DNA of 64,000 bases from Dictyostelium discoideum (GCA_000004695.1 CM000151.3:5120001-5184000), one strand, 5' to 3'; positions 58,201-63,367 are shown, counted from the stretch's first letter. Notes: generated by a model not told the origin, from the sequence alone. Made by a program: numbers and translations.

Positions 58201-59801
58201 AATCAATACCTCAAATACTTGTTTCATGAATGTTATCCTTCAATCTTTAACAGGTTGTCAATTGTTTTTAAGGGTTATTAAAAATTTATCAGATTTAGAA
58301 GATTTAGGAAAATATCCAACTTTACATAGTTTGTATGTTTTTTTTTTTTTTTTTTTTTTTTTTACTAATTTTATTTTTTAAAATTTCCATATTAATATTC
58401 CTTTTTCAAATATAGTAACCAATTTTATACAGAATATTTTTCAAATCCTACTTCAAATATATTGAATAATAATAGTAATTCAACAACAACAACATCTTCA
58501 TCTTCAACTACAGCTACAACAACATCAACATCAAATAATAATAAATCGCAAACACCAACATCACCAATACAACAACATCATCAGAGTCAAACTAATGGTT
58601 TAAGTAATCAACCATCAGTAGCAACACAATCACAACAACAACAACAACCACAACCACCAATTAATCCGAAACATTTTAATGATTTAGTTAAATCATTTAA
58701 TTCAAAAGTATCACCAGTACCTCAAACAACCGTTTCACCTCATTCAATGGTTCAAGTTTCAAAAAAGAAATTAAAACTTCAACTTTATAATAATTCGTTA
58801 CCACAAACTATTTGTCAACAAGATGCTCAAGAATTTTTAGTATTCCTTTTAGATTTAATTCATGAAGAATTTTTAACATTAATAAGTAAGTTTTTTTTTT
58901 TTTAATAAATAAATTTAATAATTCTAATATTATGAATTAGTCACACTAACGATAACAACAAAACAAATTTCTTTATTTTCTTTTTATTTTTTTTTAAAAA
59001 AAACACAGAAGATATTGATATACCAAAAGAGGATGATAAATCAACACCAACATCAACATCAATTGTTGACGATAATTGGGAAGTAGTTGGTAAAAAGGGT
59101 AAAACTGCAATCATTACAAATGTATGTATTTTCTTTTTTTTTTTTTTTTATAAAATGAATTAATAAAAAAAAAAAAAAAAAAAAAGAAAACTAATAAAAA
59201 AAAAAAAAAACAATTAAAACAGAGTCAACAAGAATTACCAAAAACTCCAATTTCACAAATATTTTCAGGTGTTTTAAGAAGTAGTTTTAATAGAACCGGA
59301 AGTAAAGAATCAATTACAGTTGAACCATTTTATTGTTTACATTTGGATATTAGACCAGAAGAGATTAATAGTTTAGAGGATGCACTTAAATTCTTTATGA
59401 AACCAGAGATTATTGAAGGTTATACATGTTCAACTAAAAAGATTGAAATATCAGCTTCAAAGAGTTGGTCCTTTGAATCATTACCAAGAATTTTAATTGT
59501 TCATTTCAAGAGGTTTGCTTTTGAGAGTGATACTTCAAAGAAATTGGATAAATTAATTCGTTTCCCAACTCAATTATCACTTTCAACCGCTTCAAATCAT
59601 CAAACTCAAAAGAAATACTCACTATTCTCTGTCGTTAGTCATCATGGTAGAGGTTTATCTCAAGGTCATTACACTTGTGATATCTATCAACCACAACAAG
59701 CTCAATGGATTAGATATGATGATTCAACTTTTACTGAAGTAAAAGAACAAGATGTTTTAAATAGAGAAGCTTATCTATTATTATATCAACTTGTTAATTA
59801 A
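55281..59801 (+). CDS. Ubiquitin carboxyl-terminal hydrolase, USP10-like. Exons are 55281-58332, 58416-58885, 59009-59121 and 59223-59801. There is an apparent frameshift between 57086 and 57251.
   Basis: - Cys box: GLINTSNTCFMNVILQSL at the end of exon 1.
- QQDAQEFLVFLLDLIHEEF in exon 2.
- DDNWEVVGKKGKTAIITN in exon 3.
- His box and C-terminus in exon 4: ...LPRILIVHFKRF...YSLFSVVSHHGRGLSQGHYTCDIY...AYLLLYQLVN.
These align closely with the human USP10 catalytic domain. Introns are 83, 123 and 101 bp, with phases 2/1/0 consistent. The long N/Q/T-rich N-terminal region is read in two overlapping frames (55281..57251 and 57095..58381). Confidence 0.8.
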
Positions 59802-60077
59802 AAAAAAAAAAAAAAAAAAAAAAAAAAAAAAAAAAAAAAAAATTAAAATAACAATAACAATAACTATAACCATAAAGAAATAAAAATAAAGAAAAAAGAA
59901 CAAAAAAAAAAAAAAACAAAAAATAAAAAAAAAGAATTAAAAAAATAAAAAAACCTTTACTTTAAAAAAAAAATAAAAAAAACAAATAAATAAATAAAAT
60001 ATTAATCTTTATTTACCCCCAAAAAAAAACACATCTTTTTTTTAAAAGTGAAGTTTCAATATTTTAAGACTTTACCT

Positions 60078-60700
60078 TTAAAAAAAAAAAAAATAAATAA
60101 ATAAAAAATAAAATATTATCAATATTTCTTTTAAACATGCATGTTTTGGAAAAGTGTATGGAATTATGATACCTTTTAAAATGATTTTACCGTCAATGAG
60201 AATTTCGATTTCTTTATTCTCTGAATTGTAAATTATTTTTACACATTTATCAACACCATCATTGATTTCATTGAAACTATTACCCAATGAATATTGATGA
60301 CTAGTTTATAGGGATTGGTTTGGAGTTGGTCTTTGAATAGAATTATGGTTAGAACAAGGATCACCCATTTCTTGATTGCTAAATGTATCAAATTCTATTG
60401 CAATTATACCATTTGCCATTTGATTATAGCCCAACTCACTCCCAGCTTGCTTAATTTCATTAATTCCATTTGTTTGAAGAATAAAAGCAAATCCATCAGC
60501 ACCTCTTCTTGAGACATTAAATGTAAATTCACATTGAAACCCATTATCTATTGTTACTTTTTTTCTACTCCAAATTGAACCAACTTTGCCTTGTAATGAG
60601 GGTGTTAGTTGAATAATCATATCACCACCTTTTTTGTTGGAAATAATTTGGCAGATCCATTTAGTTTATAACCTTTTTCTAAATTATAATTTTCAGAATA
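60078..60700 (-). pseudogene. Inverted, truncated and frameshifted copy of the L-type-lectin gene. It corresponds to about 62103-62690 of the intact gene.
   Basis: Minus-strand ORFs 60306..60620 and 60078..60287 are near-identical to the lectin domain of 61844..62767 but are interrupted. Upstream there is a TGA and an indel. The C-terminus fuses into spacer sequence (KHACLKEILIIFYF...). A plus-oriented remnant of the lectin stop (cagttttaaattaa) sits at about 60692-60706. Confidence 0.7.
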
Positions 60701-60850
60701 ATCAATCATCAGTTTTAAATTAAATAAAAAATTATATGGTTATTGGTTTTTAATAAAATTAGAAAACTTTATTGGAAATTATAATTTAGTTTTTTTTTTT
60801 TTAAATTATTATTTCGTTTTTTTTTTTTTTTTTAATTCTTTTAACTCATA

Positions 60851-61330
60851 GGTATCGCCAGTACCTCAAACAACCTTTTTGTATTCCTTTTAGATTTAAT
60901 TCATCAAGAATTTTTATCATTAATGAGTAAGTTTTTTTTTAAAAAAAAAACAAATTAATAACTCCAATATTATGAATCAGTTACACTAACAATAACAAAA
61001 AATCAACTTCAACTTCAACATTAACATCAACTTCAAACATCATCAATTTTTAATTATAGTTGGTAAAAAGGGTAAAACTGCAATCATTACAAATGTATAT
61101 ATTTTCTTTTTTTATAAAAATAAATAAATAAATAAATAAATAAAAAAAAAGAAAACTAATAAAAACAAAAAAAAAAAAAATTTACATTTAGATATTAGGC
61201 CAGATGAGATTAATGGTAGGTTTATCTCAAGGTCAATACATTTGTGATGTCTATCAACCACAACAATCCCAATGGATTAGATATGATTATTCAACTTTAT
61301 TGAAATAAAAGAACAAGATGATTTATCTAT
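60851..61330 (+). pseudogene. Decayed duplicate of the 3' portion of the USP10-like gene (exon 2-4 fragments with deletions).
   Basis: The segments ggtatcgccagtacctcaaacaacc...gtattccttttagatttaattcatcaagaattttt, ...ttggtaaaaagggtaaaactgcaatcattacaaatgtat... and ...tgtgatgtctatcaaccacaacaatcccaatggattagatatgat... match 58700-59760. Large internal deletions remove any ORF. Confidence 0.7.
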
Positions 61331-61843
61331 TTTATTAAATCAACTTTTTAGTTGGGAAAAAAAAAAAAAAAAAAAAAAAAAAAAAAAAAAAAAAAAATAA
61401 GAATTAAAACCAAAAAAAACTTTAATTAAAATAATAACAACCATAACCAAAAGAAATGAAAAAAGAACGAAAAAAAAAACAAAAAATAAAAAAAGAATTA
61501 AAACTAAAAAACTTTACTTTTATAAAAAAAAAAAAAATAAATATTTATCTTTATTTATTCCCAAAGAAAAACACCTTTTTTTTAAAAGGCAAAAGTTTAA
61601 ATTTTTATTTGAAAATTTACCTTTAAAAAAAAAAAAGAATATAAAATATTATCAATATTTCTTCTTTTTTTTTTTCCCCCAAGTCCCAAAAAAAAAAAAA
61701 GAAAACTTTTTTTTCTTTTTTTTTTTAGAAATTTAAAATTTTTTTGAAAAAATTATTTTTAGCTTTTAAAACACGTTGGTTAATATTTTTGTTTTTTTTG
61801 TTTAAATATTTTTTTTTTTTTTTTTTAACAAATAAATTTAAAA

Positions 61844-62767
61844 ATGATAGGTGAAAAAAGAAAAAGAATTGAATTAATTAATCTACAAGAAGTTTTGAAA
61901 GGTAGAAAAAGAAATGTGAATAAAGAAAAAGTAACAGTTAAAAAAACCAAATCAAAACCAATAAAAAATTCAAAGTCAGCAATAATAACAACTAAATTCA
62001 GTTGTGTTCCTACTACCGCCATTACTACTAAAAGTCAAAGCAAAAACTTAAAAGCCCCAACAAAAACCAAACCAACAATAGAAAATGAATTTATAAAAGA
62101 AAATGATGATATTGATTATTCTGAAAATTATAATTTAGAAAAAGGTTATAAACTAAATGGATCTGCCCAAATTGTAACAAACAAAGAATGTGGTGATATG
62201 ATTATTCAACTAACACCCTCATTACAAGGCCAAGTTGGTTCAATTTGGAGTAGAAAAAAAGTAACAATAGATAATGGATTTCAATGTGAATTTACATTTA
62301 ATGTCTCAAGAAGAGGTGCTGATGGATTTGCTTTTATTCTTCAAACAAATGGAATTAATGAAATTAAGCAAATTGGGGGTGAGTTGGGCTATAATCAAAT
62401 GGCAAATGGTGTAATTGCAATAGAATTTGATACATTTCATAATCGAGAAATGGGTGATCCTTATTATAACCATATCTCAATACAAAGACCAACTCCAAAC
62501 CAATCCCTATCAACTAATCATCAATATTCGTTGGGTTCTTATCATTCCAATTCAATTAATAATGGTGTTGATCAACGTGTAAAAATAATTTACAATTCAG
62601 AGAATAAAGAAATCGAAATTCTCATTGATGGTACAATCATTTTAAAAGGTATCAAAATTCCATACACTTTTCCTAAATATGCATATTTTGGATTTACTGC
62701 TTCAACAGGAAAGCAAAAACAAATCCATCAAATAAAAGGTTGTAGATTTAATTCAGTTTTAAATTAA
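61844..62767 (+). CDS. L-type (legume/ERGIC-53-like) lectin-domain protein. It has a basic Lys-rich N-terminal region and no obvious signal peptide.
   Basis: Lectin-domain blocks QVGSIWSRKKV, RRGADGFAFILQTNG, GVIAIEFDTFHNREMGDP..HISI, VKIIYNSENKEIEILIDG and YAYFGFTASTGK are present. ERGIC-53/VIP36 and legume lectins carry analogous blocks. Single exon from the ATG at 61844 to the stop at 62765-62767. Confidence 0.7.
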   Translation: MIGEKRKRIELINLQEVLKGRKRNVNKEKVTVKKTKSKPIKNSKSAIITTKFSCVPTTAITTKSQSKNLKAPTKTKPTIENEFIKENDDIDYSENYNLEKGYKLNGSAQIVTNKECGDMIIQLTPSLQGQVGSIWSRKKVTIDNGFQCEFTFNVSRRGADGFAFILQTNGINEIKQIGGELGYNQMANGVIAIEFDTFHNREMGDPYYNHISIQRPTPNQSLSTNHQYSLGSYHSNSINNGVDQRVKIIYNSENKEIEILIDGTIILKGIKIPYTFPKYAYFGFTASTGKQKQIHQIKGCRFNSVLN

Positions 62768-63367
62768 ATTTAATTAAATTAAATAAATAAATAAATTTTA
62801 TGGATAAGTTTTAAATAAATAGAAAACTTTGTTGGGGTTTATAATTTTGTTTTTTTTTTTTTTTATTATTATTTTTTAATTCTTTAAATTCATATTTTAA
62901 AAGCTTTATTAAATTATTATTTATACATATGTTGTGTTTCATTTGTTATAATTTTTCAAAGTTTTAAATTGATTAATTTATTATTTTAATACAATAAAAT
63001 TTTATTATTTATTATTAAATTTTTAATTATCTATTTGTTTGAGTTGATAGTATTATTATATCCAAATAATCTTTACCATAAACAACTACAACTTTCCACA
63101 AATTACCAATTTACAATAAACAAAAAGACCATACTCCGAATAGAAAAAAAAAAGAATATATAATTAAAATCATTTAATGATATAGGATAAAATTTTATTT
63201 AATTATAATTATTTAAAAGTTGTTTGATGTATAACAGAATTTTATTAATGTTTTATTTAAAAAAAAAAATATAAATAATAAAAAAAAAAAAAAAAAAAAA
63301 AAAAAAAAAAAAAGAATAAAAAAAAAAAATAGTATTTATAAATAGTTTTTTTTTTTTTTTTTTTTTT

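Follow-up and report, generated by a model that had tools for sequence, protein, structure and literature searches.

An old tandem duplication at a deubiquitinase–lectin locus of Dictyostelium discoideum, with an eroded gene fragment and an inverted lectin relic

In a 64,000-nucleotide (nt) stretch of Dictyostelium discoideum DNA (GCA_000004695.1 CM000151.3:5120001-5184000; hereafter the window, with positions counted from its first letter), the 3′ end of a gene for a USP-family deubiquitinase and a neighbouring gene for a legume-like (L-type) lectin, DDB_G0275019, lie in two head-to-tail units that together form a tandem segmental duplication. The upstream unit, copy A (58707-60850), contains the functional USP 3′ part, a spacer, an inverted lectin remnant and the lectin 3′ flank; the downstream unit, copy B (60851-62894), contains a decayed USP fragment, a spacer with the lectin promoter, the intact lectin and its 3′ flank. 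This bears out, by self-alignment and by comparison with relatives, the tandem duplication of USP 3′ end, spacer, lectin and flank that an earlier note on this DNA had described. Our comparisons establish the anatomy of the units, the junction that they share with related genomes, the polarity of the change, the lesions and the exchange between paralogs. The whole history that we propose (an old single duplication, gene conversion between the lectins, erosion of the USP fragment, lineage-specific loss of one lectin and an inversion in AX4-type sequence) has in our estimate a probability of about 0.85.

Two head-to-tail units and the junction between them

The region is extremely AT-rich, with the CAA and AAT codon runs that are typical for Dictyostelium. 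The window was compared with itself by stringent gapped self-BLAST of 56-64 kb, with DUST on and strict scoring against A/T low-complexity matches. The extended similarity between the units anticipated in the earlier note was recovered as five direct blocks, in the same order in A and B and at 76-93% identity, together with one inverted lectin block (Table 1). Against shuffled sequence, the A-rich spacer match stood at z=19.5 and the lectin 3′ flank match at z=12.2, each with about twice the score of the best other tile in the window; no further copy of the unit was found elsewhere in the 64 kb. The original unit began midway through a USP exon (58707) and ended 127 nt beyond the lectin stop codon (62894), a length of about 2.6 kb (1095 nt of USP, 487 nt of spacer and promoter, 924 nt of lectin and 127 nt of flank). 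The units are now shorter than this because A and B have each lost sequence since the duplication, so that the 2.1 kb given previously describes the present copies and not the original; the unit boundary proposed at 60851 is exact.

To place the breakpoints we made a three-way comparison of the parental USP (...TTTAATTCAAAAGTATCACC...), the junction (...TTTTAACTCATAGGTATCGCC...) and the parental flank (...TTAAATTCATATTTTAAAAGC...). The switch point falls at 60850/60851, within an imperfect 8-nt microhomology, AATTCA[A/T]A, present at 58699-58706 and 62887-62894. Microhomology at the join points to a microhomology-mediated event, which at AATTCAxA could have been a template switch during replication, slippage or unequal repair between sister chromatids. 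The unit ends show this 8-nt microhomology only, with no transposon-like open reading frame (ORF) or long repeat (no transposon library was searched), and transposon-mediated duplication was set aside. An origin of the USP fragment by retroposition was rejected, as the fragment lies in tandem with its parent and keeps pieces of both introns (58886-58969 corresponds to 60927-61009, and 59122-59213 to 61095-61178); because these intron segments persist, the duplication occurred at the DNA level.

An AT-rich region filled with homopolymers is hard to assemble, and a mis-joined or collapsed repeat could in principle mimic such a structure. However, a second assembly (GCA_054883475.1, locus L001), which comes from the Nanopore and Illumina set of Holland et al. 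2025 (PMC12745789) and probably represents AX2-214, is 99.54% identical to the window over 12 kb and, across the 4.4 kb of 58600-63000, differs from it in the lengths of three poly-A runs only. The ORFs of DDB_G0275019 and of the remnant, DDB_G0275151, are present both under the 2005 AX4 reference accessions and in this assembly. Judging from the exact protein identities, these accessions and the small differences from L001, the window is probably AX4 reference sequence of chromosome 2. The copies moreover differ by 8-24% and by many indels, and the same junction occurs in related architectures in three more genomes. Because two independent assemblies of different technology agree and the copies are this diverged, we regard an assembly artefact, the alternative raised in the earlier note, as excluded for practical purposes. 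The poly-A runs themselves, at 59165-59167, 59800-59808 and 61357-61367, are 3, 9 and 11 nt longer in the window than in L001, which may reflect either true homopolymer instability between laboratory strains or sequencing error.

The two copies of the USP 3′ end have had different fates. That of copy B retains about 506 of 1095 nt, and the block map places deletions of 103, ~56, ~120, 278 and 14 nt in it; pieces of USP exons 1-3 were recovered from it by tblastn. This decay, and the intact downstream lectin ORF, agree with what had been described before. Because the tandem duplication had one breakpoint inside the gene, the copy-B fragment was dead from the outset: it was never a complete gene and was non-functional from the start, without the 5′ two-thirds or the promoter. 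Only the upstream USP 3′ end would have stayed joined to its gene, while the downstream fragment eroded by deletions. The complementary pseudogenisation suggested in the earlier note accordingly describes the lectin, of which one genuinely redundant copy was later lost, and not the USP fragment.

The upstream gene is a USP-family deubiquitinase as judged by its UCH domain (PF00443 on the last USP exon, 3.2e-32 in Pfam), and USP10/Ubp3 is best taken as a label only: its best sequence matches in the Protein Data Bank (PDB) were USP2, USP15 and USP8, with no USP10 structure among the matches. Its GT..AG introns lie at 58333-58415, 58886-59008 and 59122-59222, and the spliced translation is open to the stop codon at 59799-59801. 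Nonsynonymous divergence (dN) of USP is ~0 across eight genomes, and that of the HAT gene is also ~0. The USP coding region at 56190-57860 contains very long, Dictyostelium-typical runs of CAA, ACA and AAT codons (poly-Q, poly-T and poly-N, with ~50 consecutive Asn codons); run lengths vary, and the gene models among the compared strains range from 1040 to 1524 amino acids (aa).

Comparison with related genomes

We compared seven syntenic loci, with modules mapped by tblastn and blastn, and found five structural states among the eight genomes. D. firmibasis, D. dimigraforme, D. citrinum and D. cf. discoideum ACTFIZ (FIZ) have a single-copy arrangement, USP - lectin - HAT, with no USP fragment. 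D. discoideum ACTFIR (FIR; L002) and ACTFIW (FIW; L004) have USP - lectin1(+) - short USP fragment - lectin2(+) - HAT, and D. cf. discoideum ACTFIY (FIY; L006) has three partial units in the order USP - lectin N-terminal 44 codons - flank - USP fragment - lectin - flank - USP fragment - HAT. Because four relatives keep the single arrangement, the duplicated structure is the derived state, which answers the call for comparison with other strains and species in the earlier note. The ancestral locus would have carried a single lectin, in the order USP - lectin - MOZ/SAS HAT.

The flank-to-USP junction, ...AATTC.TTTTAACTCA[T/A]AGGTATC[G/A]CC..., is the same in the window, FIR and FIW, and occurs twice in FIY. 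A TTTCG signature is present in the copy-1 flank of all carriers and missing from the parental flanks. The USP fragments of AX4, FIR and FIW have at least four derived changes in common (GCT>TCC, GATGAT>GATTAT, GAAGT>GAAAT and TATAT>TAAAT), found in none of the eight parental USPs; those of FIR and FIW share a further ~390-nt deletion that is not in AX4. Because junction, TTTCG signature and derived USP changes are common to the carriers, a single duplication before the lineage split accounts for them; it would have been one head-to-tail event of ~2.6 kb that preceded the split of the AX4, FIR, FIW and FIY lineages. Synonymous divergence from AX4 in the flanking genes is 0.02-0.07 to FIR and 0.05-0.12 to FIY. 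The duplication is thus old; one cryptic sister species shares it with divergent isolates of D. discoideum, and it was followed by unequal exchange and deletions. Duplication, inversion and decay can indeed be seen at one locus, as the earlier term 'snapshot' implied, but the event is not recent, its junction predating the lineage splits.

Lectin paralogs that group within lineages, the different three-unit architecture of FIY and the five structural states in eight genomes might instead suggest that AX4, FIR/FIW and FIY were duplicated independently at a recurrently breaking fragile site. We consider this extremely unlikely, given a junction identical to the base in all carriers, the TTTCG flank signature, the derived substitutions common to the USP fragments and a ~100-nt deletion just past the junction that AX4 and FIY have in common.

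The grouping of the paralogs within lineages has the marks of sequence exchange between them under a single origin. A neighbour-joining tree of a 580-nt lectin block unites all six lectin copies of D. discoideum type with 93% bootstrap; within this clade AX4 A pairs with AX4 B (96% bootstrap) and copies 1 and 2 of FIR and FIW group together. Ten sites follow this lineage pattern, with A=B against all four FIR/FIW copies, and derived states occur on both sides (62332T and 62577G in AX4; 62129C, 62389A, 62448G and 62624G in FIR/FIW). Three sites follow the paralog pattern: 62463G and 62466C are found in AX4_A, FIR_1 and FIW_1, and 62543C in the copy-2 genes. As patterns in aligned sequence, these indicate that in both lineages the tandem paralogs have undergone gene conversion. 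At first both lectins would have been complete, with gene conversion passing sequence between them; each lineage would later have lost its upstream copy separately.

The upstream copy is damaged differently in each carrier. FIR_1 has lost 22 nt from its N-terminal region and carries two smaller deletions, of 1 and 3 nt; in FIW_1, a homopolymer after codon 4 is longer by one A; in FIY_1, the whole stretch from codon 44 up to the last codons is gone; and the inversion was seen in AX4-type sequence alone, copy 1 being in direct orientation in FIR, FIW and FIY. Because no lesion is common between lineages, these losses appear independent: judging by the lesions, the upstream lectin was disabled at least three or four times and the downstream lectin was always kept. 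The positional lectin ortholog is an open ORF in six of six genomes (AX4, FIR, FIW, FIZ, FIY and D. citrinum).

Several points weigh against parts of this history. The lectin tree groups by lineage and not by position, so that a single origin needs conversion in both lineages, and paralog signal is kept at only three sites. The single-copy state of FIZ means either that it branched before the duplication or that it reverted by unequal crossing-over; synonymous divergence (dS) in HAT suggests that FIZ is more distant, whereas dS in USP does not. The extra A of FIW_1 could be a sequencing error. The duplication and inversion junctions do not discriminate between repair pathways, and the label 'pseudogene' for the relics is a reading of their sequence. 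The strain names AX2-214, CR116C, OT3A and M4B/S6B were tentatively assigned from accession order and a table in PMC12745789.

Three further features of these loci were observed. The damaged upstream copies of FIR and FIW (L002 6865-7450 and L004 8458-9043) are nearly identical (Jukes–Cantor distance (JC) 0.003), whereas the intact downstream copies (L002 8253-8834 and L004 9915-10496) are ten times more different (JC 0.035, dN/dS 0.75), opposite to the expectation from constraint and a hint of diversifying selection, introgression or recent conversion. In FIY (L006 6290-9760), where the flank-to-USP junction occurs twice, the first lectin consists of 44 codons and its last codons. Over the 151 nt compared, the third USP fragment of that locus (9281-9748) shares 97% identity with its parent, against 91% for the other fragment, which suggests a younger unequal exchange or conversion; two of the FIY fragments appear in the annotation as UCH 'genes', of 140 and 100 aa.

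The inverted lectin remnant

In copy A, the lectin lies in reverse orientation between copy-1-type spacer and flank. The 91.9% inverted block and its breakpoints confirm the inversion and truncation described previously, although the block itself runs from 60133 to 60711 and not from 60078 to 60700, positions 60078-60132 being spacer into which an ORF extends. Copy A lacks the counterpart of 61664-62103 (~440 nt, comprising ~180 nt of upstream sequence and the first ~87 codons) and of 62689-62752 (64 nt near the C terminus). On the left, the inverted segment joins the spacer (to 60130) across two ambiguous T's, and the right junction has a trinucleotide overlap, TCA, with the direct-orientation remnant, TCAGTTTTAAATTAA. 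Three lesions lie within the block: a 1-nt deletion near 60651/2, a 3-nt deletion that keeps the frame and a nonsense codon, TCA>TAA, at 60303-60305; of the 'frameshifts' noted earlier, only the first is one. With 92% identity to DDB_G0275019, the promoter and N terminus gone and disabling lesions present, the lectin of copy A has the sequence hallmarks of a non-processed (duplicated) pseudogene.

We suggest that in the AX4/AX2 lineage the upstream lectin was flipped in place by a two-break inversion (60133-60711) with 0-3 nt of microhomology at its junctions, through end joining or through template switching during replication. The inversion would have lost the ~440 nt and the 64 nt at its breakpoints, removing promoter and N terminus, and the frameshift and stop probably came after it; the remnant is presumably not expressed. 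Inversion by non-allelic homologous recombination was rejected, there being no inverted repeats around the inverted block except the lectin arms themselves.

Because it has the copy-1-specific states 62463G and 62466C, the inverted block represents the original upstream copy. Its close relation to copy B could otherwise be taken to mean that a replication template switch (a duplication-inversion event) later laid an inverted copy of the downstream lectin over the upstream one: AX4 A and B are each other's closest relatives (96% bootstrap, JC 0.080, compared with 0.117 and 0.112 from A to FIR_1 and FIW_1), and two or three derived states, including 62332T and 62577G, are exclusive to them. This seems to us improbable. 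A shares its copy-1 states with FIR_1 and FIW_1, and B has 62543C as do FIR_2 and FIW_2. In FIR and FIW both copies are direct and yet equally homogenised by lineage, for which ordinary gene conversion suffices. Furthermore, the A-B distance (0.08) is no smaller than the orthologous distance between AX4 and FIR (0.078), so that the copying would have to be old. Inversion in place of the original upstream lectin is therefore the reading that we adopt.

A 104-aa ORF in the remnant, DDB_G0275151, is annotated as protein-coding in AX4. It covers positions 24-129 of the 215 of PF18483 (66.5 bits, under the cut-off of 78.3), an incomplete domain that spans only about half of the lectin beta-sandwich, and such a half is unlikely to form a stable protein. 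Private substitutions number 17 in the remnant (7, 4 and 6 by codon position) and 9 in the intact copy. These counts would fit neutral change in the remnant, in a comparison that involves few sites and an intact gene that itself evolves at a dN/dS (omega) of ~0.5. DDB_G0275151 is probably a misannotated pseudogene, the longest ORF left in an inverted, truncated relic.

We nevertheless weighed whether the remnant might be functional, either as a real 104-aa protein or as a 579-nt inverted repeat that gives rise to antisense or hairpin RNA and regulates the lectin through the RNA interference (RNAi) machinery. The ORF is ATG-initiated and is annotated in AX4 and the new assembly alike. The 579-nt arms are 92% complementary (predicted minimum free energy -818 kcal/mol, against -215 for shuffled arms), and the remnant sits antisense directly downstream of the USP gene on the same strand. 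However, the ORF covers its domain profile only in part and is cut short by a nonsense mutation; the remnant's private substitutions fall about equally on the three codon positions, and it came without a promoter. Between the arms and the neighbouring transcription units lie A-rich spacers in which AATAAA motifs are numerous. The arrangement was moreover found only in AX4/AX2-type sequence, relatives having lost the same copy in other ways. We found no paper naming DDB_G0275019 or DDB_G0275151, and none on this locus among the literature on Dictyostelium duplications or hairpin small RNAs. A functional remnant is, on balance, very unlikely. The most specific form of the idea, that the AX4/AX2 remnant is a silencer, 579 nt of antisense from USP read-through or from a transcript of both arms feeding RNAi, is a long shot, as is a milder version in which loss of the upstream copy in four lineages would reflect selection against a double lectin dosage. 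Were the silencer real, it would be a naturally evolved, lineage-specific, pseudogene-derived control of a fast-evolving lectin. Pseudogene-derived hairpin or antisense endogenous small interfering RNA (endo-siRNA) loci occur in mouse oocytes and trypanosomes; the resemblance to them, an inverted pseudogene near its parent and a long, near-perfect duplex that could form, is one of architecture, known here from DNA.

Table 1 Features of the duplicated locus and blocks of similarity between its two copies (positions in the window)
Feature	Position	Strand	Remarks
Copy A unit	58707..60850	+	2144 nt; left end from junction comparison
Copy B unit	60851..62894	+	2044 nt
Left-breakpoint microhomology AATTCAAA	58699..58706	+	Pairs with AATTCATA at 62887-62894
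3′ part of intact USP/UCH-family deubiquitinase gene inside unit	58707..59801	+	Exons to 58885, 59009-59121, 59223-59801; GT..AG introns
Spacer A (USP 3′ UTR and intergenic A-rich DNA)	59802..60130	+	Direct match to 61357-61663
Inverted, truncated lectin, putative pseudogene	60133..60711	-	Corresponds to copy B from 62688 down to 62104
104-aa ORF DDB_G0275151 (XP_643808.1, Q86I38)	60306..60620	-	Exact match; ended by TCA>TAA
Direct-orientation lectin remnant	60709..60850	+	Last codons, stop (TCAGTTTTAAATTAA), 3′ flank; corresponds to 62753-62894; TTTCG signature as in FIR, FIW and FIY copy-1 flanks
Tandem-duplication junction, CATA joined to GGTATCGCCAGTACCTCAAACAA	60847..60872	+	Lectin flank joined to mid-USP exon; also in L002 (7616), L004 (9253) and twice in L006
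USP 3′ fragment, without 5′ part or promoter	60851..61356	+	Intron pieces kept; at least five deletions
Spacer B and lectin upstream region	61357..61843	+	61664-61843 without counterpart in copy A
Intact L-type lectin-domain gene DDB_G0275019	61844..62767	+	307 aa, single exon
Parental lectin 3′ flank	62768..62894	+	Ends at right duplication breakpoint AATTCATA, 62887-62894
Direct block	A 58688-58735 = B 60832-60879		85%
Direct block	A 58835-58969 = B 60876-61009		86%
Direct block	A 59084-59213 = B 61057-61178		86%
Direct block, gapped	A 59644-60130 = B 61213-61663		76%
Core of the gapped block	A 59651-59731 = B 61218-61298		93%
Direct block, 3′ flank	A 60749-60825 = B 62809-62885		79%
Inverted block	A 60133-60715 = reverse complement of B 62100-62688		91.9% over 589 nt
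MOZ/SAS-family histone acetyltransferase gene	63368-63991 and beyond	-	Identified by Pfam

The intact lectin, its neighbours and known systems

By profile search, the 307-aa product of DDB_G0275019 has a full L-type (legume-like) lectin domain, above the curated Pfam cut-offs for PF18483 (4.6e-33, 115.3 bits against 78.3, profile positions 4-212 of 215) and PF00139 (4e-24, 85.9 bits against 26.3), and it matches the sequence of a legume lectin in the PDB (7elv, 6.7e-20). The protein is identical in every residue to that of D. discoideum AX4 (XP_643809.1, Q86I39). A homolog search recovered no other L-type lectin of the same kind in AX4 beyond DDB_G0275019 and its relic, and homologs came only from D. 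discoideum and close relatives (D. citrinum, D. dimigraforme and D. firmibasis). The next match was a metagenomic protein of 25% identity with PF18962, which we take to be a bacterial secretion-sorting domain; a bacterial origin of the family by horizontal transfer is conceivable. By eye, the lectin N terminus (61844-62110) lacks a hydrophobic signal peptide, and its first ~90 residues are strongly basic (KRKR, KGRKRNVNKEK, KKTKSKPIKNSK), so that it looks like a nuclear-targeting or disordered region, which is unusual for an L-type lectin domain.

To the right, the MOZ/SAS HAT gene, whose C-terminal 208 aa are 100% identical in AX4, FIR, FIW and FIY, forms the conserved limit of the variable region. 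D. citrinum alone has an extra gene between lectin and HAT (L005 9076-11505, minus strand), for an 809-aa protein with a signal peptide, a C-terminal transmembrane segment, long serine runs and D/G/N-rich repeats that by eye resemble FG-GAP/VCBS; it looks like a repeat-rich membrane protein and not a transposase.

The locus exemplifies a very well-known process, in an instance not described before, and leaves current understanding unchallenged. It resembles the non-processed pseudogenes of globin and 5S rRNA in its head-to-tail copy with introns and flanks, in the frameshift, stop and deletions confined to one copy, in a partial gene copy that was dead on arrival and in gene conversion between paralogs. 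In contrast to those cases, one breakpoint here lies inside a neighbouring gene, and one unit gave two different relics, one of them inverted in place. Duplication-inversions in human structural variation are attributed to microhomology-mediated template switching (fork stalling and template switching, or microhomology-mediated break-induced replication; FoSTeS/MMBIR) or to two-break end joining. Rearrangements of the FoSTeS/MMBIR type share with this locus the 0-8 nt of microhomology, the inverted segment within a duplication and the small deletions at breakpoints, whereas here duplication and inversion were separate events, far apart in time.

Within Dictyostelium, the tgr allorecognition locus is structurally dynamic (Holland et al. 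2025, PMC12745789). It is alike in genus, genome set, copy-number turnover, pseudogenes and exchange between neighbouring paralogs, and the lectin here is likewise fast-evolving; the present case concerns another locus and gene family, with one to three units, and lectins are not mentioned in that paper. The large chromosome-2 duplication of the AX3/AX4 laboratory strains (PMC12745789) also lies on chromosome 2 of D. discoideum, but it measures hundreds of kilobases, is of laboratory origin and is not found in AX2, whereas the duplication described here is of 2.6 kb, is present in L001 too and is common to divergent wild isolates.

Some annotations deserve correction. Both the AX4 reference and UniProt (Q86I38) list DDB_G0275151 as a 'legume lectin domain-containing protein'; the USP fragment at 60851-61356 is uncalled in the one annotation examined, and its FIY equivalents are called UCH 'genes'. 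The lectin may merit functional study, in which the design of knockouts and probes should heed a 92%-identical inverted copy 1.4 kb away. More broadly, the locus offers a worked example, from a genome of extreme AT-richness, of how small tandem duplications originate at microhomology, are homogenised by conversion and are resolved as lineages independently lose the same copy.

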